Below, piece after piece: positions 64-60,862 of a stretch of DNA of 64,000 nucleotides. The stretch lies in NCBI GenBank assembly GCA_045837725.1, contig JBEWZL010000157.1:1-64000 (forward strand), in the 5' to 3' direction. Within the stretch, counting starts at the first letter, position 1, and each line of letters begins with the position of its first letter. The position numbers were made by a program, and so were the translations under genes. The notes under the pieces were generated by a model. That model made no database searches and was not told the DNA's origin. It worked only from the letters and a program-made list of their open reading frames with translations. The stretch is from Vermamoeba vermiformis (Eukaryota).

Positions 64-639
64 TTAATATTTTATTATGTAATTTAAAGTCAAGAATGGT
101 TGCATGATCGGATGAGGCTGCGAACCACCAGCATTAGCGGTGTTCGTAACAAAAGGTCCAGGATTGGCTGGTCCATTCGGCCAGACCCATTCGTGATTTC
201 CACCGCCAGGCAACTGATTGTTCATCAACCATAGTGATCCTGTTGTCCCTGGCGAGGGCAATCGCATGTTCAATTGAGGGAGATTCAAAGTGTGATTGTG
301 TGCAGGGAGCTGATCCACAGTTAAAGTATGCGACTCGGATCCACCTTTCGTGCCCAACGTGCGGTTAGTTAATCCAGCGCCTTGGCCCGTTCCAATAATT
401 ACTCTTCCTCGCAGATCTGGTACGTGAGGTGCTTGTGTTCCTGGAGGCGAATATCGTGAACCAAGTATTTGAGCTAGCGTGGCGTATTCAGGATGATTGA
501 CCAAATCAAGTGCTGAGCCGTCGCAAAAAAGCCAACCCCGGGGACAAGTAGTGCCGGCAAAGGGGCAAATAGTACTCTCGGGGATCAGTTGGTTAATTTG
601 TTGTTGAAGGTTTGTTAATGTCGGAGGAGTGTCGCTCAT
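64..639 (-). CDS. Phage tail-collar domain protein (MdpB/microcystin-dependent-like), intronless
   Basis: Motifs ICPFAG..CPRGWLFCDG, PDLRGRVIIGTGQGAGLTNRTLGTKGGSE.HTLT..QLPAHNH and C-terminal GGSQPHPIMQPFLTLNYIIKY match the tail-collar/MdpB pattern; single uninterrupted ORF. Confidence 0.9.
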   Translation of the reverse strand: MSDTPPTLTNLQQQINQLIPESTICPFAGTTCPRGWLFCDGSALDLVNHPEYATLAQILGSRYSPPGTQAPHVPDLRGRVIIGTGQGAGLTNRTLGTKGGSESHTLTVDQLPAHNHTLNLPQLNMRLPSPGTTGSLWLMNNQLPGGGNHEWVWPNGPANPGPFVTNTANAGGSQPHPIMQPFLTLNYIIKY

Positions 640-867
640 GTTGGCAGTTTGATTGAGAATGAGTTATAGCTTCGCTCCTATTTTATATTTTCGATTCTTA
701 GCCACGTGACATGACTTTTCAACTAACTTTCACCCTCGTACTTTGGTCAATTCTTTTTCAAACAGAATACATTTGTTTATTCTTTCAGTCCATGGACTGG
801 TGTAAATTAAAACTTTTCGCTTCAACCATTATTAAACGTTTTTGTATTTACCGCACCAAATTTTACT

Positions 868-17564: not shown

Positions 17565-20500
17565 ATGAGTGACTTAGCAGTACTTAACCGAGATATAGGC
17601 ACTCAAGCTGTGCCTTCATTGTTTCAGCAGACGTTGTCCTACATCTCGCAACTTAAGCAATGGACATTTGTCCAAGACGTGCCTGAAACAGCGGTGCCTG
17701 AACTATTGTCAATGTTAAAGTATACAGGTTCGTACAATATCATTGAGTAATGGAGAGAAGTAGTTTTGATCTGATATTTTTTTCAGATTTCGATTTGGAT
17801 CAGCTACCGAATGTGTTGCCAGCTTCATTACAACAATTGGATTTGACAGGATTCCACTACTTTGGAGGAGTCTACGCTATTAGCGATCATTAAAAAGGTA
17901 AAGAATTAATTTTTCTTGCAACGCCGTATTTTCTATTCTACGATAATAGTCAGCTGATTTATCCTCATTTAAAATTGATATATTGCTCAATATAGAAGTA
18001 TAAAGTCAAACTATAAAATCGATTCTTTACGAGGTAAATTTCATTCTGATCTCCGTTATTTAGTGCTTTTCTTTACGGGTACTCATTCTGAAGGACATGC
18101 CTCTGCTGAATGATAGTACGCTGTCCAAAATATTATGGTAAGAATTAATGCGGCAATTTCGATTTTCTAATTCGTTTTATTTTAGGTACTTGCGGGATCT
18201 GGAATATTTGAGCTTAGGCGCTGGAATAGGCTCGTTATCGATCCTCGAAATGGAAAATACACCTAATAAATTGAAGTATCTTGAAATCAACTCTGCTGCT
18301 ATGGACGGCATGTGGCTCGAACATTTACGTTACTTTCCACATCTAATGTAAGTCCAACTGGATCCGATATTTTTATTTCATATTTCTAATTTATATGTAG
18401 CTCGTTAAAGCTCAGAAATGTAGCGCTTCCGAAGGTCCGATCAGCTCCTTTCAAATTGCCTCCCAACCTGGCCGTTGTTGACATTTCTGTCGCAAATCAA
18501 GAGAGCCAAGTCAGCACCGTCAATTTATTCAAATTCTTTTTGATGGAAGCTCCTAATTTGCGAACATTTGTTTACGGCGGACAGAGTTTAATTGTAGATG
18601 GGATAGGGCCCATAGTGTAAGTACAAAAGAAACAGAAAAATCACCGACCTCAATCTTCCTACAGTACTAATTGATGTTTTGCAGTGCTAAGAACTTGCGT
18701 TTGCTGCGAGGAAATGGCTGTATCAAAGTGTTACAAACCGTGGCTGATGTCATTAGTGACACGTGTCAACAATTAGAAGAAGTGTCTGGCTTGAATTTGT
18801 TCGTGACTGCCGCCAACGACGTGCCTTTCGGTCAGGTCCTTATACCCTGCCGGCGGAGCTTCCGTGTGCTTCACTTACACGCGCAAAAAGTTGAATCACG
18901 ATTACAGCGGAATAACTTCAGAAACTGCTTGGAAAGAGGGTCCTACGAAGTTCAACGCACCATGGTTAGCAAGTTATGTCCTCCCAATCGACCCTTGCCC
19001 GACATTGAGAACTTTAGAATTGACCGACGGAACTGTGGACGTTGTTGAGATGCTTCAACTTTTTCCTAATTTGGAAGTCTTACTATTGAACGGAGTAACC
19101 CTCAAACTGCAAAAACAACTTCCAGTGGCCGGCCATGCATTGGGATCTAAGCTGAAGATATTAGATTTGCGTTGCAAGGAAGTGCCCGCTGGTGCAATTG
19201 ACCTACTCTCAACATCATCGTCACTCAAACGCGTCAAACTGTACTTAAATTTGATTCCAGAGTTCAACGGGCAGCCAATACACCTCGATCACGTGCTCAG
19301 GAAATTTCCGTGTGTGAAACGTTTGACACTTTCTGGGCACTCAGCGGCGGCAATTACAATCACTAATGATGGCAACACTAAGGCTGTCAAAGCTATGACA
19401 TATCATCCGTTGAAAGAGCTCGTAATCAAAGGCAGTTCCGATCTAGAATATGTTCTCATCAGAACCGCGCTTAGTCTCCATAATCTGGATTTCAATCGGT
19501 ACAAGCAACTTCAAGTCCTAACACTAGACAACGTGTACATTGGCACAAACGTGACTTTACACAGCCGTTTGCGCGTATTGTGCGTGCTTGGCTTGCTCAG
19601 CATGTATTCAAAATTCTCGTTCTCTGAAACGTTGTACCATCTGACGTGGCATTCACGGTACTTGCACGATCAACTCTTGAAGGCAGTGCCCAACATGAAG
19701 AGCCTTTGTTCCGCGGACCTCTCTGCGTACTTGCGAGAACAAGCCGAAAAAATATTAGGAAGAGGTAAGTTTCGCTGGTTATAAAACTAAGCTTGATATA
19801 AAAATAATTCGATATTATTTCTAGCGGTGCCGCTCATCAATTCGAAGTTGAAATATCTTTTGCCGCCGCAAAAGGATGAAGTTGGTAAAACAAACTTGCT
19901 CAATGGATTCGCTGGAACAAATGACGATGTGGCTCTCTTGAGAGCGAAGTTGAATGAAAGCGGATCCAACTTGACCATTCGAGAGTTGCAATTGTAAGTA
20001 GACTAAAGCATCATATATAGCCCTTACGAATATTTCTTACAGGATCGCTGAGATGTATGGCAAACAAGAGATTAGCATTCGCTCAACGGAAGAGCTCGTG
20101 CATGTCAAGATTAGGTAGAGTGACACGTGTCAAAATGTCATAATATGTCACTCGCCAAACTTGAGCTAACGAATGATTCAGGTTGGTTTCTGGCGCAACG
20201 TTGCCCATTATTTGCAACCCAAGTCATCGTGTGCTTGATCTTTACGCTTATGCAAGACAGTAAGTATTGCTGCCAATTTAAACGACATGTACTAATTTGG
20301 TAATAACGAAGTGCTGTCAAACTCGATGACAAAGCCTTTGACTTGTTAGCGCCATCAAAGAGCGTACTTGATCTGAGTACCTATGACAAGACAGTGCAAG
20401 AAATGGATCTCGCTAACACGACGCTGATTCAACGACTTCGTGACTTCACGCCTGTTGAGAACGAACTGCGCAAATTCAGTTGGGCCAATATAAAGTTGTT

Positions 20501-21221
20501 AGATATTGGTAAGAATAGGACTACCAGCCAGTCGAACTACCATTGCCAATCGCTTCGGCCATCGAGTGCTGTCAACGTCAATGATGCACTACAACACCCC
20601 GTCACACGACGATGACGTTTCGATGTCTGAAAGTGTAGTGTCCGGTGAAAGCGAGTCAGAAAGTGAGCGCTCGGGAGATTCCGATGATGAAGAGGAGGAT
20701 AGCATGCTAATAAGCGATGACGATGACTTTGGTTGGGTAAGTTATTACGACTTAAATATGATTTTTTTTCTTAATTTTTTTTTTGTCTGGTTTAGGAGCC
20801 CGAAAAACCATTGCAAACCGACGATAAGAGACATATTATGGATCAATTAAAAGCTGCAAACATGCGCAAGTCACGCGAATACCACGAGCAAAAAGAACGT
20901 GAAGAGCGTGAAGCGGCTTTAAAAAAGCATGAAACCCAGCAAGAAAAAACCAGCGGGAGATCGCAACGAGATTTTGTATCGCAAAGAACGCCGCAGAGAA
21001 GAGTAGCTGAGCAGCGAGTTGGTTCAAATCCAACCGTGCGTAGATCTGCTTTTCAACCGTTCAATCCTTCCACTCAAAGCTATAACCAACCTCTTCCGCA
21101 TGCAATGAATTGGGAGAAAGACCGTGCTGTTAATAACGGAGTGATGGATGACGAGCAGATCGCAGAAATGTTGCAACAAGACGAGTACTTGCGTGGCGAT
21201 GATTTCGTGCCTTATTTGTGA
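17565..21221 (+). CDS. BC-box-like / LRR / UBX / MIU protein, copy A (apparent +1 C at 18845-18847)
   Basis: LRR segments LRDLEYLSL, FPNLEVLLL, LQVLTLDNV; spliced UBX-like VKIRLVSGATLPIICNPSHRVLDLYAYARH..FDLLAPSKSVLD..KTVQEMDLANTTLIQRL; C-terminal DDEQIAEMLQQDEYL; paralog at 35809-39517. Confidence 0.75.
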
Positions 21222-21392
21222 ATAAATTGTTAATAGTTTTCGAAATTAATCTTTTACTATTACCAAATAGTATCACTCTTCCGCTTGAGAACAACTTGAG
21301 ATTAGAAACGAGCGAATTTTTTTTCTTGTTTGTTACCAACAACATTTCTTACTTACGGCTATTTTTTAGTAGAAATTTAACACGCGACCAGA

Positions 21393-24300
21393 ATGGAGAT
21401 CAATAATAACTATTTGGACATTACAGAAGTGCTATTCTCCTTATTTGGAGTTCTGGATCCGCGCAGTCTTGGTTCGTGATGATACTTCGTATTAAATAAC
21501 AACATTAATAATATTTTATTAGATCGATATAGCACCGTTTGCAAGCGATGGAATCAAATGAGCAAAGATCAAGAGTTGTGGCGTCAGTTTTGTATAAAAA
21601 AATGGAAAAATCTTCCTAAGGATTCTGACTGCGCAAAAAATTGGATAATTCCTTCAGAAGGTAATCACAAAATTAGGGAATTAATTATGATTTTTTTGAC
21701 GTGATTAAATCCGGATCAGGTAAAGAAAAGAAGCGAATAGATTGGAGACGAGTATATATTTTACGGTATGCAAATTATTATTTGAGATTAGCATGTAAAT
21801 GGATTTACCTTTTCATGAAGGGATCTTTCAGATCAGATCTCGGATTACTTACGAGAAGTCATTATTGCTACAACACCGGTGCATAGAAGATCAGCATTTT
21901 TCATGAATAAGAAGAAAGTCAAAGATTTTTTCGCTAAAGGATGGATCGAAGCAAAACAATTAACTCAGTGGGAGGATCAGCTCAAAAAAATCTTATTCAA
22001 ACTAATACTCGACGAAAATAACGATTTTCCAACGGACAAATTATACAAAATGCTTCTAAGCATATTGGATTTCCATTTAGAAATGGAATTAGTGATGGTC
22101 AAGCAAGCAAAAATATCGAACACAAAACAACTCGGATTCGCAAGTTATTTCTTGCACGAATCCAAGTTTATATTTAGAGGAATTTCATCATTTTCATTAC
22201 ACGCATTATCAAAAAGGTACTATTAGCTTAATATTTTTTCGTCTCAGCTAATATTTTTTTCAATAAGACTTTTGCGATCTGCTCGTCAATACGTTGAAAG
22301 TGCTAGGGCCAATGAAATTCCTATTATACATGTTGGTGATTATTTACATGGACTATCGGGCATATTTTCATTATTAGACGCGAAACATCCGAATTTCAAC
22401 GAATCCATTCCCGATCTCGCAGAATTTATCAAACTTGTATTGCATTGCATCGATACCTGGCCAGTAGAAAACGAGTTTGTAAGTATATTACTCTTATTAA
22501 TAATATATACTAAGCCTATTAATGCTCCAGAAAGTATGGATCAGCGAAACCATCGATGAGACCCAAGAACATTTCCCGTCACCAACTTACGACCTCGAAC
22601 AATGCTTTTCTGAACTGAGCACGAGAATACGTATGATTAATTGTCAATAATATAGCATTAATAATTAATATAATTATTCAGAGTTGATTATGGCAAAGGA
22701 CTATAAATTTCTGGATAATTTATTGGAGACTTTAAGACCTCAAATCCCACGCCAGTGATGGGATTAATATGTTTCTTGGCCCCACCGTGCCGCGGACTAT
22801 TTTTAGAGCATATGGACGAATTTATGGATAAGTACGTTCAGATATTTTTTCTAGAGCGGAAAAAATTGTACTGAAATTTCGTTTTTTCTTAGATATTTCA
22901 AGCCTTATTTCAAAGTGAGCAGCGATCCCAAAGACCTCATTCCGATGTTTTACTACTATCAAAATGTCATCAATCAATTCCCAGTACGTACCATAACAGT
23001 TCTCTGTGATTAAATTACGGGTTCTTAACATTATTTGCAGGACGAATTGTGCTCTAAATACGCTGATTTATTTTTCCCGGCAATTATCACCGCAGCACGT
23101 GTCAATCATGTCAAGTAAGAGCCACGATTAAGTTGAGAAAAATTGAATTTGTACTGACAGTTTTTAAAGGGTGAATGGCTACGTATGCAGCACCATATTC
23201 AATTTCTGTCGGACGATCTCCGATCACGCAGCGTTATTGCCTTATATGGAAAGCCTTCTCGACGCGCTCTACCCGTTCCTGAAGAGCTCTAACACCGATG
23301 TGCGTGAAGGCGCTGTCTCATCAATCACTTCACTCTTGATGCGCACCAAACAAGAGTTCCACAAGGTACGTCTCGATGACTTGACACGTGTCAAAGTGTC
23401 ATTCGTGAAAAATATTGTTGACACGTGTCATCAAACTTGTCACATTTAACGATGCTAACTGCGCTTGTAGTACCAAGATCGCGTGATGCGTGAGTTCATG
23501 GAGCTTAGTCAGCGCAGCAAAAGTGACCAACAGACCGTGTTTGAAGAGTTGGGCAGATTGAGTGCAGCACTTGGAAATCAAAGCGGAGCACTGGGCACAA
23601 TGATTGAAAAGAGATTTGACGAAGTTATTGAAAATTTCAAACGAGATAGACCTGCAAATGAACAAGCCTTGTTGAACTTGGTCGGATGCGCTGCTGTCAC
23701 GCTCGGCAAAAATTTCTCAAAATATTTGACGTTAGTGATGCCGTTCATATTAGAATTAGCTACGCCTAATATACCCGATGATAATGGCGATGATATTGAA
23801 GAAATTCCTGAGGCTAATCCTGATAATGACGGTAAGATCCAGTTTTTCAATTTTCACTGAAAACTGATTTGGGCTATTTAGATGATATTATGGACGTGGA
23901 AGAAGATGAAAATAATAATGAAGATAAAGAAGATAATAATGATAACGATGAGATAGCCAATTTTGGACGAGAAGATGGCAAACGAACCGAACTGCGAGAA
24001 AAAGCACTAGAAACACTCGGATTTTTATTAGAATTGCCTCGCGAAGACATGCTGCCTTATTTCCAAGAAATTGGGGCAGCTTTATCAGTCAACCTAGAAG
24101 CTGAGCAAGATTTAGGTAAAAAAATTTCACCATCGGATCCGGACAACTTTACGAACCATTTTTTCACAGACATTTTGATGCAATGTATCAACGACTATGC
24201 CGATTATACACACTTGTTCTTCACAAAAGACGCAGATGAAGAGTTTTTGAATGGCATTCGAACATTCGCTGAACACGTGACCAACTTGTTCTCTGCTGCG

Positions 24301-30456: not shown

Positions 30457-31655
30457 TCAAGCATTCCGTTGCATTAACTCCACGAATTTGTCGTGTCCAA
30501 TATCGATCATTTTCTCCATAGTCTCCGTAGTGTCATTAATCATCCAAATTTCCTCCGGATCCATCAACAACTCGGTCATGTAGTTCAGTTGCATAATACC
30601 AGTGATGTAGTACAGCGGAACAATTATCTTCCACTCGTCGGCTGTTAACGGAAATCCACGTGTTCGTTGATATTCGTTCATGAACGCGCGTGTCAAATTG
30701 ACGTCAAGTTGCGATCCGACAAAACACCAACAAAATATGGACTGGGCAATGTCAGCGACCAATGGGCCGTAAAATGCATCGTCAAAGTCGAGTACTGCTG
30801 CAACTTGTTCCTTATTAGCGTCAAATAAGACATTTTCGTCGTGCAAATCCGCGTGGATCACGCCTTGAGGTACATTTGCAAGTCTTTGCACGAATTCTTC
30901 GCGCGTGATCGGATCGTCTAGAAATTCGAGTTGTTTGCAGATATTTCCTATTCTGGCAAATATCTCCGCGTGATCTGCCGCCCAATCCAGGTGATCTTCC
31001 AACATGTGATCTTTGATCTCGAGGTAATCTATCGCGCTTCGGGCCTCGTTCTTCCATTCTAAGCTGTTGTAGGTCAATTTATGCTGATTGCCTAAATATT
31101 CTGCTATTTTTAGGGCTTGCCAAGTCTGTCTCGAGGTCGGATGCGCCGGATTTCCATTCACGAATTTGACTCCTTCGACAAATTCAGATAAAACGCCATA
31201 ATAGTCATCTTGCGTGACGTGTATTCCTTTTTTGGAAAGAATCGAATCGGATTCGCTCGCGTTTTTAAATGTGCAAACTTTTGGGACTGGAAGATTATGG
31301 TTTTTCAAATGGCAAAGTAGATCCACCTCGAAAATAAGCGCGTCGGTCGTTCTATTCATATAATCCTTCGTATATACTCGCAAAGCGTATTTCTTGTCGT
31401 CTACAGTCGAGATCTTGAATGTCGAGTTGACCCATCCGCCTGTCAATCGTTCAATTTCTTTTGATTTTGCTAGGCCACAATTTTCTAGAATTTTGTCGAC
31501 ATTTTCATGCGATATCTAACCACGAAATAATTAGTCTACAATAAATAAATAATTTATCTTTAAAAGTTATCTTTATTGGCATAGCTGCAATTTATATACG
31601 AATGTTAACGTTCGATAACAATGTATTAATAACGTATACTTACTGATTGCAACAT
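30457..31655 (-). CDS. APH/choline-kinase-fold phosphotransferase, homoserine kinase type II-like
   Basis: GGWVNSTF, YALRVY, Brenner-type GVIHADLHDENVLF, VLDFDDA; 4-codon first exon MLQS spliced to one long exon. Confidence 0.85.
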
Positions 31656-35808: not shown

Positions 35809-38800
35809 TCAACCGTCAAAATTGTTCAAGTACTCTTCTTCTTGCAACATCCGCGCCATTTCTTCGTCGGTCATAAATTCCATGTTATTAACCGGATTAG
35901 CTCCTGGCGTGGGAACAAAATTATTTGGTTGTTGAGGTTGTAGGTGACCAGGCAGGAAATTATTATTATCGTGTAAAGGTACGTTTCGCCATATTGTTCT
36001 CGCTTGATCCGCAATTCTTTTTTGTTCCGCTTCATTTTTTCTTTTCGCCTCCTCGCGCCTTCGCATCTCTTGTTCTTCTTGTAGTTTTTGTTCGTTGCGC
36101 TGCTTTTGTGCGTGGTACTCCATTGACTTGCGCATTGCTTCAGCGTTCATTTGATCTAGAAGGTATTTGTTCTCGCCTGTAATCTCCACTTTATTTTCGA
36201 CTTTTTCCGGCGCGTAGAACATCTGCGCAGAAAAAAAAATCAGAAAATAATATTTCCAAATATGGTAATAATGACTTACATCGAGATCATCGTCATCGTC
36301 GCTAATTTGCATGCTATCACTTTCATCTTCATCTTCGCTGATCTGATCTTGATCTTCATTCTCTGCCTCGCTGTCGTAGGATTCTTCGCTCTCGTCCGAA
36401 CCATAATTATCGTCGTTGCGAGAGGTCATATTGTTGTTACTATTTGTGGTATGATAGTTCGATTTCTTGATCGACTGGTCTTGCGAGTTACTTAGGCCGG
36501 CATCCTTGTTCTTGCCAAAGTTGATTAAAGCCGAATGGAACAAACCAAAGCTGCGTAGTTCGTTCTCAACAGGTGTTGCCTCGCGCAATTTTTGAATCAA
36601 AGTCGTGTTGGTCAAACGAAGTTCTTGCACTGTCTTGTCATAGGTGCTCAGATCGAGAATCGTCTTCGGCGGCACTACCAAGTCAAAGGCCTTGTCGCCA
36701 AGTTTGACGGCACTGTATTACCAAATTAGGAAATGTCGGTCAAAACCAGCGGTTGAAACTTACTGTCTTGCGTAGGCATAAAGATCTATCACGCGATGCG
36801 TAGGATTGCAATTGATATTCATCACGGCACCAGATGTCAATCTGTTCATGAATTAGCATAATCTGCTGTTTGACACGTGTCATCTTTGACATACCTAATC
36901 TTGACACGTACGACCGGTTGATCAGAACGAAGACTAATTTCTTGCTTCGAATACATTTCGGCAATCCTATGAAGGCATTAGTATCGTTATAAATGGTAAA
37001 TGAATGACCTACAATTGCACGTCCTTCATCGACAAGTTGGATCCGCTCGACTTCAACAACGCGGGCAATTTTTCCATTGGCGACATCTCTTTTCTAATGC
37101 CCGAGAATGCGCTGAGTAAATTCGTCTTTGTCAGTTCTGATCGTCGTGGCAGCAGATATTTTAAGCTCCACTTGTGTTGCGACCCGTAGATCATTTGAAT
37201 TTCTGCGATAAAATGTCAAAAACTCCGCTCAAAGCCAAAATAGTATGAATTATATACGTACGATCGCCAAATAATTGTTCCGCTCGCTCCTGTAAATGTC
37301 CCATAAACTGCACGGACCTCAAATGCTTCATGTTGTGCATGGCGGCAAGAATTTCACTGAACATCATGTTGGACTTCCATTGCAGATGATACAACGTGAG
37401 AGGTATATTAAATGACTCCTTATAAAGGCCATGAATGTCTTCGACTTCCAACACTCTCAATCGAGTCGGTAGTTTGACATCCACGCCTAAATAAACTTCT
37501 TGTAATTTCAAGGCCTGTAGATTTTTGTACCGGCCCAAATCGATTCTCCGCAGTGTAAGGTTATTTGGGAGAGCATTTACGATTACGACTGGCCGACGAA
37601 TGAACGAGAGCTTTCTCACTGGATGATCGGAAAAGTTGGCGTTGGATCCGAGATCCGAGGCGTCTTCGTTTTGATTGGTGATAGTGGTTGAATTTGCAAG
37701 GCCTTCTATTATTAGATCTTCCGCAAATGGAAATTTTTCGAGTAATTTCTCAAAGTGTAGCGTTTCAAGTTTGAATTCGGGAATTCTGTTGATTTCTAAC
37801 GAGACATTTTTGAGCGACTTTGATCGCGTGAGTAGGTCGATTGCACCAACTGGCATTTGCATAGGAACTAGTTTCAAGCTCTTCAAATGATATCCTAATA
37901 TCTGAGTGTCGTCCTGTTGCTTTTTGTCCATTTTTAGAGTTGCTCCTGATAAATCTAAGTGTTCCAAATTAGGAAAAAGTTGCAACAATTCAACGACATC
38001 CACCGTTCCACTTTGCAAAATTAATGTGCGTAGGGTCAGGCACGGATCGATCGGCAAAGTATAAACTGCCAGCGTTGGTGCGTAAAACGAAGTCGGTCCT
38101 TCTTTCCAAGCACCATCGCCCGAAGTTATTTCCGTGAAATCGTAATTCAACTTTTTGTTCGTGAAAATGAAGTGAATTTTTGCTATTGCGCCTGCAGCAA
38201 GTGATCTTTCGCCTATTAATTCAGACTTATCATCTTCTATTATTCGTGACAGGCCCGACACTTCTTCTAACTTTTGACACGTGTCATTGATTGCGTCCAA
38301 GACAAACTTTGACACTTTGACTGACATATCTGTTCGTAATACTCTCAAATTCTTTGCACTACATAAATATCATTAGTATTATATTAATTATATCCCTACT
38401 ATGCCTTTCTTACGCAATAGGGCCAATTTCTTGAACAGTGTGCTCGCGGTGGCGATATTTACAAATGAATTCTTGCAAGTTTGGCGCGTGCATCAAAAAA
38501 AACTCGAATAATTTGACGTGTTCTGCGGTGAGAATTTGATTCTTCGCCGTTGAAATATTCACGCTGGCCAGATTCGGAGGCAATTTGAACGGAACCGACT
38601 GGATCTTCGGAAGTGCAACGTTTCTTAGTTTGAGCGCTCTAAAAAATAGTTAGAATATTATATAATAATTAGAATATTGTTGATATTAAAATTATTATTA
38701 TTTGCTGCTACGTACATTAGATCAGGAAAATAGCGCAATTGTTCCAACCACATTTCGTCCATTGACGCGGAGTTAATTTCAAGGTGAACTAATTTAATAG

Positions 38801-39517
38801 GTTTTTGCACTATTTCAAGCATCGATAACGATCCTACGCCTGCACCCAAGCTCAAGTAAGTCAGATCCGGCAAGTGCCTTTAACAACATCAAAGAATTAG
38901 AAAATCAATTCATTATTTTAATTTTTTAATAATTACCAAAATATTTGTGGCACCACTTGCTGCGTAATTAATGGCACGTCGTTCAATATGAGCTCACTGA
39001 TGCAAAAACACTAAACACAAAAGAATATCAATTAATTTCATAGGTCATCAAAAGGAACCAAATAAATAGAACAATGTCTTAATTACGATATATACTTAAA
39101 TAAATTGAAGAAAATATTCGGAATCGTATCTTAACAGGACACCAAACGGGACAAAAAAAGATTTTACCTTTTTAATAATCACTAATAATGTATCTTCGGT
39201 CAATTGGATATATCCAGAAAGATCTAAATGCTGCAGCGATGCGGGCAATAAGTTTGGTAGAAGATCTAAATCGAAATCTGGAAAAACGACGTCAGATCGA
39301 AATTGAACTGCACTCCGTTACTTTACATTTCATATTAATATTTACCAGTAAGCTTAATCTTTTTCAATAATCCAGGCACAGCAGTCTCAGGGATATCTTG
39401 CGCGAATGACCATAACGAAAGGTTCGAGATCCAAGACAAAGCCAGCTGAAATAGCGTAGGCACTGTTGGAGCACTAAGCTCTTGCATAATCTCCGATGAT
39501 TCTGTTAAGTCGCTCAT
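35809..39517 (-). CDS. BC-box-like / LRR / UBX / MIU protein, copy B
   Basis: Colinear paralog of 17565-21221 with matching intron positions; shared blocks AWKEGPTxF, LPIDPC, GTVDVVE.LQLFPNLE, DLSTYDKTVQE; ends TDEEMARMLQEEEYL. Confidence 0.8.
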
Positions 39518-58797: not shown

Positions 58798-60862
58798 ATG
58801 GAAGAGATATTGATGAAGTTTGAGCCTGAGAGAAAAAGCACGCAGGTAAGCGGCAGATTTCACTCTTAGGATACTTCAATTAAATTTTAATTGTTCAACT
58901 ACCAATAATTATCTAAAAAATCAAGGAATAAAGCTATGGTGTTTACTTTATTTATATTTTCTACTGTTAAAAAGGCGGGATCTGATCAAGATCTTCTTTG
59001 TGACAGGTTCGTGCTTTGCGCACCCTAGAAAATCTGTGTTGTCTAGCAATAGGAAAAATGGAAAATAAAGAAGGACTCGCATTGCATCGTTTACCACGCG
59101 AAGTCAAGTTGCGACTTTTCGGTGAGCTAGATCTGGCTTCATTTTTCTAATACTGAATGATCTAACGCAATATACGATAGATTATATCAAGTCCGATTCT
59201 AGGAATTATTTAGGAGTCGAAGTAATCGAAGCGTTGTTAGGTAATTGAACGGGCACCGTGGATCCGTTTGTAAACTGAAATAATTTTTATCTTACTCGTA
59301 TGATTAATTAATAATACCAATATTATTATTTTAGATAAAGATGTCACAAAAGTGCTTTTTCAGAATGCTATTCGATTTCAAACGCCGCAAGTCAAAAAAC
59401 TGATCGAGATCTGTCCGAACATCACGCACTTGTCTGTGAGTGGTTGTCACAAGCTATTAGGTACATTATTGATACTAATACAATCAATATACTAACATTT
59501 ACTCAGATTTGACGCCGTTGATCGATGCCTATGCGAATACCTTAGTGTCGCTTGACTGCAGCAGATTATTTTTCAGCGCAGAGAAATTGGCTGGCCTGAC
59601 AAAACTTAAAAAATTAGAGCGATTAATATTGACCGGAAATTCTATCAATAATGGCGAGCTGATCCTAAATATAGCACAAGCCTGTCCTAATCTCAAATGT
59701 TTGCACTTGCCTTCAGTGAAAGGCAATCATCTATTACAATTGCACGAGTACCTTCCTAATTTGGAAGAATTGAAGTTGATTGATCCGATCGATCTGCCTT
59801 TCGAAGAATATCACCACTTGCGTCGCATTGAAATCACGTGCGTGTCAAGCATTCAGTCAATGCACATAGTCTTGCAACGATTGGCCAATCTGCAGCACTT
59901 GGAGTACGTCAAATTGGACGGCTCACGTGAACTCGACGGCGCACTGCCACTTGAATTTGCAACCAATCAGCGCAAATTAATGTAAGTCATCTCTGTCGGA
60001 TCTGACCCCGTATGATCACGTACTTAACTGGTACTAATGATACGATGTCTTGTATAGTGTTTTTTCGCTCAAGTGTCGGCCGTGGTTTGGTCAACATGAT
60101 AATGGCGCTGATTCTGAATTTGTCGATCGTTTGATCCAAAACAATCCTAATTTGGAAGGACTAGTAAGCCTCGAAAAAAAGAATTGTAATCGAACTACAG
60201 TCGTCTAATTGTAAATGTTACAATAGGAATTAGTGAATGTGAAGATCAACGACGACGCCTTTCAACACATCGACAATTTGCGTCGCTTGTTGCTGTTGAC
60301 ATTGACAGGCGTCAACTTTTTAATCAACGGCACGTGGTTTGAGAACTGTGCGCTGAATTGTCCGTTGATTGCACTGCAATTACAGTGCTCTGGCAGCTTG
60401 TATCCGTCACTCCTGAACTTCCTACAAAAAGTACGATTGACACTGGCCCGAGTAATTTTAACAATATCTTAATGCCATCTTATTATAGGCCCATACTACG
60501 ATGCAGTACCTCGAGCTTCACAACTGTGCGGTGACGAATGAGATGCTGGATCTGATTGGCAGCAGATTCAGTGAACTCAAAGTACTCAAAGTCGAGGCAC
60601 TTAATATCAACTTGACTTACCCTATAGAACTCAAGTAAGGCAGATATATCTATATTGGTGTTAATAGACTTGTTGTCTGACGTTTTTTAACAGCGCGCAA
60701 AATCTGTTCAAGTTCGTGTCAGCGGCGCGTAATCTGACCATGCTGCGAGTGCGTGGAGCTAATATTGATAGCGCGACACTCAGCCAGATGAAAGAACTGA
60801 ACCCTCGCTTGAGCATTTATACCGGTCTCACGGCTGATCGTACTGTAGTACTTGAATACTGA
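58798..60862 (+). CDS. LRR protein with N-terminal BC-box/cullin-box-like motif
   Basis: LRTLENLCCLAI...LHRLPREVKLRLF followed by LRRs CPNITHLSVSGC, CPNLKCLHL, LPNLEELKL. Confidence 0.75.

Follow-up and report, generated by a model that had tools for sequence, protein, structure and literature searches.

A gene pair of Vermamoeba vermiformis combining leucine-rich repeats with a UBX-like module: a possible client receptor for Cdc48/p97

The stretch of DNA analysed here, hereafter the window, comprises 64,000 nucleotides (nt) of Vermamoeba vermiformis contig JBEWZL010000157.1 (GenBank assembly GCA_045837725.1, positions 1 to 64,000 of the forward strand). It carries two homologous genes, copy A on the forward and copy B on the reverse strand (Table 1), whose exons specify a leucine-rich-repeat (LRR) region, a UBX-like module and a tail resembling a motif interacting with ubiquitin (MIU). 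The presence of these three parts in one protein would be an unusual combination, which is still unproven. A first-pass annotation of the copy A locus had described such a protein there, as a candidate ubiquitin ligase (E3) receptor with a built-in p97 adaptor. We observed that the idea of a single protein stands for copy B, which encodes an uninterrupted chain of 1008 amino acids (aa), but not for copy A itself, which has no single open frame. The spliced coding sequence of copy B measures 3027 nt, contains no internal stop and is interrupted by ten introns, all of which begin with GT and end with AG. For this intact copy the overall layout proposed earlier also stands: its parts would follow one another as a short N-terminal pair of helical motifs, an LRR solenoid, a conserved UBX-like module of ~110 aa, an acidic disordered linker, a long helix and, at the C-terminus, an acidic, amphipathic, MIU-like helix. 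The strings that the first-pass annotation had quoted at the N-terminus, in the loops LAPSK (A) and VPPK (B) and at the C-terminus were all found (at 17610, 20346 and 21159 in A; at 39463, 36675 and 35859 in B), and the three-exon stretch at about 20095-20441 that it had assigned to the UBX domain fits exons 8 to 10 of copy A.

Table 1. Positions in the window of the two gene copies, their parts and the frame breaks of copy A
Feature	Positions	Strand	Remarks
Copy A	17565-21221	+	11 exons homologous to those of copy B; frame broken three times (coordinate splicing; tblastn of the B protein returns the same exons in three frames)
Copy A, exons 1-6	17565-17727, 17787-17897, 18064-18137, 18186-18347, 18401-18616, 18685-19764	+	
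Copy A, exons 7-11	19825-19993, 20043-20114, 20182-20259, 20312-20736, 20796-21221	+	
Copy A, frame break 1	17847-17858 (exon 2)	+	exon length 111 nt (A) versus 110 nt (B); three-frame view and exon alignment
Copy A, frame break 2	18848 (exon 6)	+	single extra T after ATACCC
Copy A, frame break 3	20590 (exon 10, linker)	+	single extra T, GCAC[T]ACAAC
Copy A, UBX-like module	20043-20444: exon 8 (20043-20114), exon 9 (20182-20259), start of exon 10 (20312-20444)	+	aligns to the module of B
Copy A, C-terminal motif DDEQIAEMLQQDE	21147-21185	+	conserved between A and B
Copy B	35809-39517	-	intact gene, 1008 aa
Copy B, exons 1-6	39517-39346, 39277-39168, 39010-38937, 38877-38716, 38638-38414, 38358-37262	-	
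Copy B, exons 7-11	37202-37013, 36966-36895, 36841-36764, 36712-36280, 36222-35809	-	
Copy B, exon 1	39346-39517	-	BC-box-like TLFQLALSWI (residues 21-30); hydrophobic-P-x-x-hydrophobic-x-x-x-hydrophobic motif IPETAVPGL (residues 42-50)
Copy B, LRR region	37262-39277 (exons 2-6)	-	only exon 6 (38358-37262) folded
Copy B, UBX-like module	36544-36966: exon 8 (36966-36895), exon 9 (36841-36764), start of exon 10 (36712-36544)	-	
Copy B, acidic linker	36280-36543 (end of exon 10)	-	Ser/Asp/Glu-rich; residues 800-871 are 35% D+E and 24% S+T
Copy B, long helix	35986-36177 (exon 11, residues 16-79)	-	AlphaFold2 prediction, block pLDDT up to 95
Copy B, C-terminal acidic helix DEEMARMLQEEEY, MIU-like	35830-35868	-	AlphaFold2 helix, exon 11 residues 119-133, pLDDT 52-64; conserved between A and B

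Each copy consists of 11 exons bordered by GT-AG, and the exons of A and B are homologous, identical in phase and similar in length (A/B, in nt, for exons 1 to 11: 163/172, 111/110, 74/74, 162/162, 216/225, 1080/1097, 169/190, 72/72, 78/78, 425/433 and 426/414); in three exons of copy A the difference from B is not a multiple of three. The proteins are 51% identical over 955 codons, with a ratio of non-synonymous to synonymous substitution rates (dN/dS) of 0.215 at a saturated dS of about 1.9; by part, the ratio is 0.19 for the UBX-like module and 0.16 for the N-terminal exons. The likeness of the two copies goes beyond chance, and the overall ratio indicates that purifying selection acted on both A and B during most of their evolution. 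The pair is best explained as two old, inverted paralogues belonging to a small gene family confined to one lineage. A segmental inverted duplication including neighbouring genes was rejected, since nothing but the A/B pair is duplicated in the window. We also noticed that the start context ACCACAAATGAG is common to both copies and that two out-of-frame ATGs lie just 5' of the copy B start, at 39541-39518 (-), forming a short upstream open reading frame (ORF) of ~20 codons.

Relatives of these genes are few. An exhaustive HMMER search with the 365-aa exon 6 of copy B against 1.84 billion representative proteins gave four matches at E ≤ 0.001, each of them an ORF fragment (352-399 aa, 39-55% identical to the query); there was no full-length annotated protein among them. 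A word-index search with exon 10 returned four clusters (45-68% identical), while the same kind of search found no match for exon 6 of copy B among longer proteins and none for the first 62 residues of the exon 10-11 ORF. The family records come from JGI/IMG, ENA, Logan and NCBI, and the family is known only as environmental ORF fragments. No relative appeared when bacterial and archaeal genome contigs were scanned with one of these ORFs, P0003, and with the family alignment A1. Exon 6-like and exon 10-like ORFs show identical contig statistics in three relatives (P0001 and P0005, 6 contigs, longest 74318; P0003 and P0008, 1 contig, 3146; P0009 and P0014, 23168). Co-location being deduced from these numbers, a linkage of the LRR and UBX-like parts is suggested for three other family members as well.

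The conserved reading of copy A runs in frame 0 up to exon 2, in frame 1 up to exon 6, in frame 2 up to exon 10 and again in frame 0 to the stop; because of these three +1 changes, 17565-21221 does not encode the protein described earlier as one ORF. One extra T can account for each break (17855-17860, 18845-18851 and 20587-20592). Two of the three breaks lie in the same context, CAC[T]AC, which may reflect chance, a systematic error in base calling or a hotspot of mutation. In our view copy A, as assembled, is probably a recently inactivated pseudogene. Orthologous ORFs cover the break sites of exon 6 and exon 10, not that of exon 2: P0003, which is 94% identical to copy A exon 6 (325 of 346 alignment columns, one of the 346 pairing an inserted X placeholder with a gap), is continuous across the first of these sites, and P0008 and P0015, orthologous to copy A exon 10, are continuous across the second. 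The conserved segments of copy A contain no in-frame stop, and copy A shares each of the 68 columns that the exon 6 alignment of six sequences lists as invariant, which speaks against a long-dead pseudogene. Together with the dN/dS of 0.215 at saturated dS, these 68 columns indicate that copy A was functional for most of its history.

A working copy A, with the three breaks due to local assembly or base-calling errors, would also account for the lack of in-frame stops, for the retention of every family-invariant residue of exon 6 and for orthologues that are intact at two of the three break sites, and the context shared by two breaks could point to a systematic error. However, copy B shows no break over its 3027 nt, and two further ORFs of the window, coding for an APH-family protein (352 aa) and for Mo25 (287 aa), each give one uninterrupted Pfam profile match, indicating that indel errors are not general in this assembly. 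In addition, the extra bases of copy A lie outside homopolymer runs. On balance we find this explanation doubtful. Programmed +1 frameshifting was rejected, since the breaks are not located at stop codons and the orthologous ORFs do not have the extra base.

The proposal of a long LRR array was borne out. We obtained an AlphaFold2 (AF2) model of copy B exon 6 from the six-sequence alignment, with a predicted local distance difference test score (pLDDT) of 73.8 and a predicted template modelling score (pTM) of 0.75; it shows regular short strands over residues 90-351 and reaches a pLDDT of 85 or more for most of residues 120-360, that is, a confident solenoid. When this model was compared with the PDB by Foldseek, LRR-containing chains or complexes accounted for all of the 44 matches listed. 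The best of them was SDS22 (6obn_D, E=5e-4, TM 0.37/0.46, 15% identity) and others were LRRs of NLRs, internalins, TLRs, TIR1/COI1 and SKP2; no particular family stands out among the matches listed, and a specific kinship with SDS22 was rejected, its match reflecting generic LRR similarity. At the sequence level, the exon 6 profile matched DRC5/TCTE1 in the PDB (E=0.013), and Pfam reported LRR_4 below threshold (E=0.12 for copy B, 0.06 for P0004) and LRR_Zer-1 weakly (E=0.38). The named neighbours in language-model space were F-box/FBD-type LRR clusters, including FBXL15 (scores 0.91-0.93), which we take as a lead only. These data support, at the level of a model, an LRR solenoid of the F-box/ribonuclease-inhibitor-like kind for the region of exons 2 to 6. 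Residues 1-80 of copy B exon 6 (38358-38120, -), which lie between the N-terminal and C-terminal LRR blocks, were predicted with low confidence (pLDDT 32-49). Some family-invariant residues are found inside this low-confidence segment, including WKE.P and F..T..KL.

The UBX-like module is the best conserved part of the protein, with 70% identity between A and B (residues 677-790) versus 51% overall, and 24 invariant columns among six family sequences. Profile and fold scans were run on single exons, and the module is split over three of them. The only Pfam family reported for the N-terminal part of copy B exon 10 was PF00789, the UBX family, at E=0.063 (13.9 bits) and E=0.12 (13.0 bits) with a cut-off of 21 bits. 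This match extends over positions 45-81 of the 82 of the profile; it is in register and covers exactly the half of the domain that is expected from exon 10. A canonical UBX domain has a conserved Arg in strand 1 and a Phe-Pro(-Arg) loop that touches the N-domain of p97. The strand 1 Arg is present in both A and B, within VKIRL, and the N-terminal half of the module may resemble UBX domains of the p47 type, which is a lead only. Pfam gave no UBX match for the copy A half or for exons 8 and 9 alone, and searching the ESM Atlas with the half-domain returned unrelated coiled-coil-like clusters only (scores 0.85-0.87). The UBX domain of the earlier proposal is thus backed by an in-register half-domain match in copy B, but this match is below threshold and the copy A half has no counterpart to it. 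Judging from the sequence, the module is likely to adopt a UBX-type beta-grasp.

Downstream of the module, the acidic stretch announced for this protein was confirmed by the composition of the copy B linker (Table 1). Where a coiled coil had been proposed, AF2 predicts a 64-residue helix in exon 11, which agrees with the helical part of that proposal. Inside this helix the motif MRKS.EYH.QK is invariant between the two copies (36150-36090, -, and 20850-20900, +). A disordered stretch rich in Pro, Asn and Gln separates the long helix from the short terminal one. In the account of RNF168 given in PMC2699339, the central Ala of the MIU is needed for ubiquitin binding. The terminal segments of both copies, DEEMARMLQEEEY in B and DDEQIAEMLQQDE in A, keep an Ala with acidic flanks, a putative fit to the MIU consensus.

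Gene models, frame breaks, LRR fold, sequence conservation, purifying selection and family rarity follow directly from the analyses; the UBX identity of the module, its docking on p97 and the binding of ubiquitin we infer from these features, and the best reading of the whole is a lineage-specific LRR client receptor that would dock on Cdc48/p97, to which we give a probability of roughly 0.45. Copy B would then be produced as a cytosolic adaptor of 1008 aa. Its LRR solenoid would offer the client-binding surface and hold the client, the UBX-like module would dock on the N-domain of p97, and the helix at the C-terminus would contribute affinity for ubiquitin carried by the client, so that the protein would act as a substrate-recruiting cofactor of Cdc48/p97.

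Several results weigh against this reading. The UBX match of copy B remains at 13.9 bits, below the 21 bits of the Pfam cut-off, and it is the single match to UBX among the six family half-domains scanned, with none for the halves of A, P0005, P0006 and P0007 or for full-length P0008. PDB sequence searches with the B half, the A half, the six-sequence half-domain profile and exon 9 gave no UBX chain. A p47/Shp1-like UBX domain had been proposed, but the SEP domain and SHP box that precede the UBX in p47/p37/Shp1 adapters were not seen: exon 7 of copy B matched no Pfam family, hence no SEP domain, and the segments found ~50 residues upstream of the module, FSGIRKEM in B and FAGTNDDV in A, do not fit the SHP box pattern F-x-G-x-G-x-x-L, so that both elements were rejected for this position. 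Finally, the loop that would contact p97 reads VPPK in B, APSK in A, VPPR in P0005, ISPK in P0006 and VPPK in P0007; it contains no Phe, and the Phe-Pro-Arg type of the UBX signature was found in none of these five sequences. The altered loop pointed out earlier (LAPSK, VPPK) is real and variable across the family. As the loop varies and does not contain Phe-Pro, p97 binding may be weak or lost, and for the binding of p97 by the module taken on its own we see slightly less than even chances.

These points lead to a second reading, in which the module has a ubiquitin-like or UBX-like fold of a generic kind and has lost the ability to bind p97, the protein being an LRR scaffold with another partner (e.g. 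the proteasome or another ubiquitin-binding protein). Such a loss would agree with a contact loop that varies in the family while the neighbouring residues are invariant, with the absence of an SHP box and with the sub-threshold UBX score. On the other hand, UBX is the only Pfam family reported for the copy B half, in register, and the Arg-containing first strand is kept in A and B. We consider this second reading unlikely, though worth retaining beside that of an LRR client receptor for p97.

UBX proteins are the main route by which clients are brought to Cdc48/p97, and one of them, UBXN7, also contacts cullins via a ubiquitin-interacting motif (UIM). To our knowledge, the known UBX proteins use UBA, UAS, SEP or PUB-type modules to recruit their clients. 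In the description of p97 cofactors in PMC9941556, UBXN7/UBXD7 (yeast Ubx5), FAF1 and FAF2 have a C-terminal p97-binding UBX domain together with a ubiquitin-binding element and connect p97 with ubiquitylated clients. As in the cofactors so described, a p97-binding UBX-like part and a ubiquitin-binding element would here be joined in one protein. Unlike them (UBA and UAS, no LRR), the protein would use a long LRR solenoid to bind its client, its ubiquitin motif would be placed after the UBX and not before it, and the UBX loop is non-canonical. The same account (PMC9941556) describes how the LRR protein SDS22 and the SHP-box/UBX module of p37/p47 cooperate on p97 in a ubiquitin-independent delivery of clients. 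An LRR part and a UBX-like part would likewise work together here, and SDS22 was the best Foldseek match of exon 6, through generic LRR similarity only; however, in the SDS22-p37/p47 system they are separate proteins, and we found neither SEP domain nor SHP box in the segments given above.

If true, an LRR solenoid fused with a UBX-like module would endow p97 with client specificity in a new way. Such a chain would parallel the SDS22-p37 or the CRL2(LRR1)-UBXN7 pair, whose functions sit on separate proteins. No LRR-UBX fusion was described among the papers listed by our full-text searches, as judged by titles and abstract openings. At present the value of the observation is limited by the sub-threshold UBX score, the non-canonical p97-contact loop, relatives known as ORF fragments and the broken state of the copy first reported.

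The E3-receptor idea, which is speculation, concerns the N-terminal exon. The protein would be the substrate receptor of an Elongin BC-cullin ligase (cullin-RING ligase, CRL, of type CRL2/5) and would include a p97 adaptor (UBX) and a ubiquitin reader (MIU) of its own, by which recognition, ubiquitination and extraction would be coupled. Two patterns, both of little information, are relevant: [S/T/P]-L-x3-[C/S/A]-x3-hydrophobic for the BC-box and hydrophobic-P-x2-hydrophobic-x3-hydrophobic for a Cul2-box-like motif. In copy B, residues 21-30 fit the BC-box pattern in its relaxed form, with Ala at the key position, but in copy A the corresponding SLFQQTLSYI has Thr at the Cys/Ala/Ser position and does not fit even the relaxed pattern. 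The BC-box claimed earlier is weak, a relaxed fit in copy B only, and the replacement of its Cys is confirmed (Ala in B, Thr in A). The second pattern, which occurs nine times in copy B and is thus poorly informative, is kept in both copies, as IPETAVPGL at residue 42 of B, 11 residues beyond the BC-box-like motif, and as VPETAVPEL at residue 39 of A. When B was shuffled 20000 times, the pair of motifs fell within the first 60 aa in 82 cases. Exon 1 gave no Pfam match in B or A, no PDB sequence match and no BC-box protein. An N-terminal F-box was also rejected, as Pfam scans of exon 1 reported none for B (E ≤ 1) or A (E ≤ 10).

Among known receptors, the Elongin BC-dependent LRR proteins (LRR1, ZYG11B/ZER1, the PRAME family and LRRC58) have an LRR domain and a short BC-box/Cul-box helix pair, and exon 6 weakly matches LRR_Zer-1; but there is no significant sequence similarity to them, and the key residue of the BC-box differs between A and B. 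We know of no UBX domain in any of these receptors. With F-box/LRR proteins (FBXL, TIR1/COI1) the resemblance is in the type of LRR, as seen from the FBXL15/FBD-type neighbours and from SKP2, TIR1 and COI1 among the Foldseek matches, whereas Pfam finds no F-box in exon 1 of either copy. The closest LRR clusters with a name belong to the E3-receptor type, again a lead only. With the Thr of copy A and the silence of Pfam and PDB on exon 1 set against the motif pair of copy B, we judge a CRL receptor improbable. Its more specific form, in which a receptor made of the BC/Cul2-box and LRR parts would be fused to the UBX and the ubiquitin-reading helix and would pass a freshly ubiquitylated client on to Cdc48/p97, seems to us a little more improbable still. 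If true, a poorly sampled eukaryotic lineage would have evolved a natural receptor-segregase coupler, a single-chain equivalent of LRR1 plus UBXN7.

It is very hard to believe that the LRR and UBX-like parts belong to two separate, adjacent genes: exon 6 of copy B read into the intron does reach a stop after 27 codons (ORF 37191-38369), which makes an LRR-only product by intron retention conceivable, but all 11 exons of B join in phase into a single ORF with canonical splice sites, the exon order is the same in copy A, three relatives seem to have their LRR-exon and UBX-exon ORFs on common contigs, and neither a start codon context nor a terminal signal is present between exons 6 and 8.

The window as a whole is eukaryotic, with short introns (~50-160 nt) bordered by the canonical GT-AG and a GC content of ~40%; neighbouring ORFs match eukaryotic Pfam families (Slo-like RCK, Mo25, SIK-type UBA, steroid dehydrogenase and alpha-amylase). 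Directly downstream of copy A, at 21384-21700 (+), lies a gene that by eye resembles one for an F-box protein, the motif of which is interrupted by an intron. An LRR-looking ORF of 168 aa at 59479-59985 (+) has no Pfam match at E ≤ 0.001 and shows no tblastn relationship to the A/B pair. Two ORFs of the window, both without introns, look bacterial. One of them, at 30457-31515 (-), codes for the 352-aa protein of the APH phosphotransferase family (PF01636, E=4.6e-27). The other, at 64-663 (-), encodes a phage tail Collar domain (PF07484, E=1.2e-14); it appears bacterial or phage-like and looks like a horizontally acquired gene within the eukaryotic contig.

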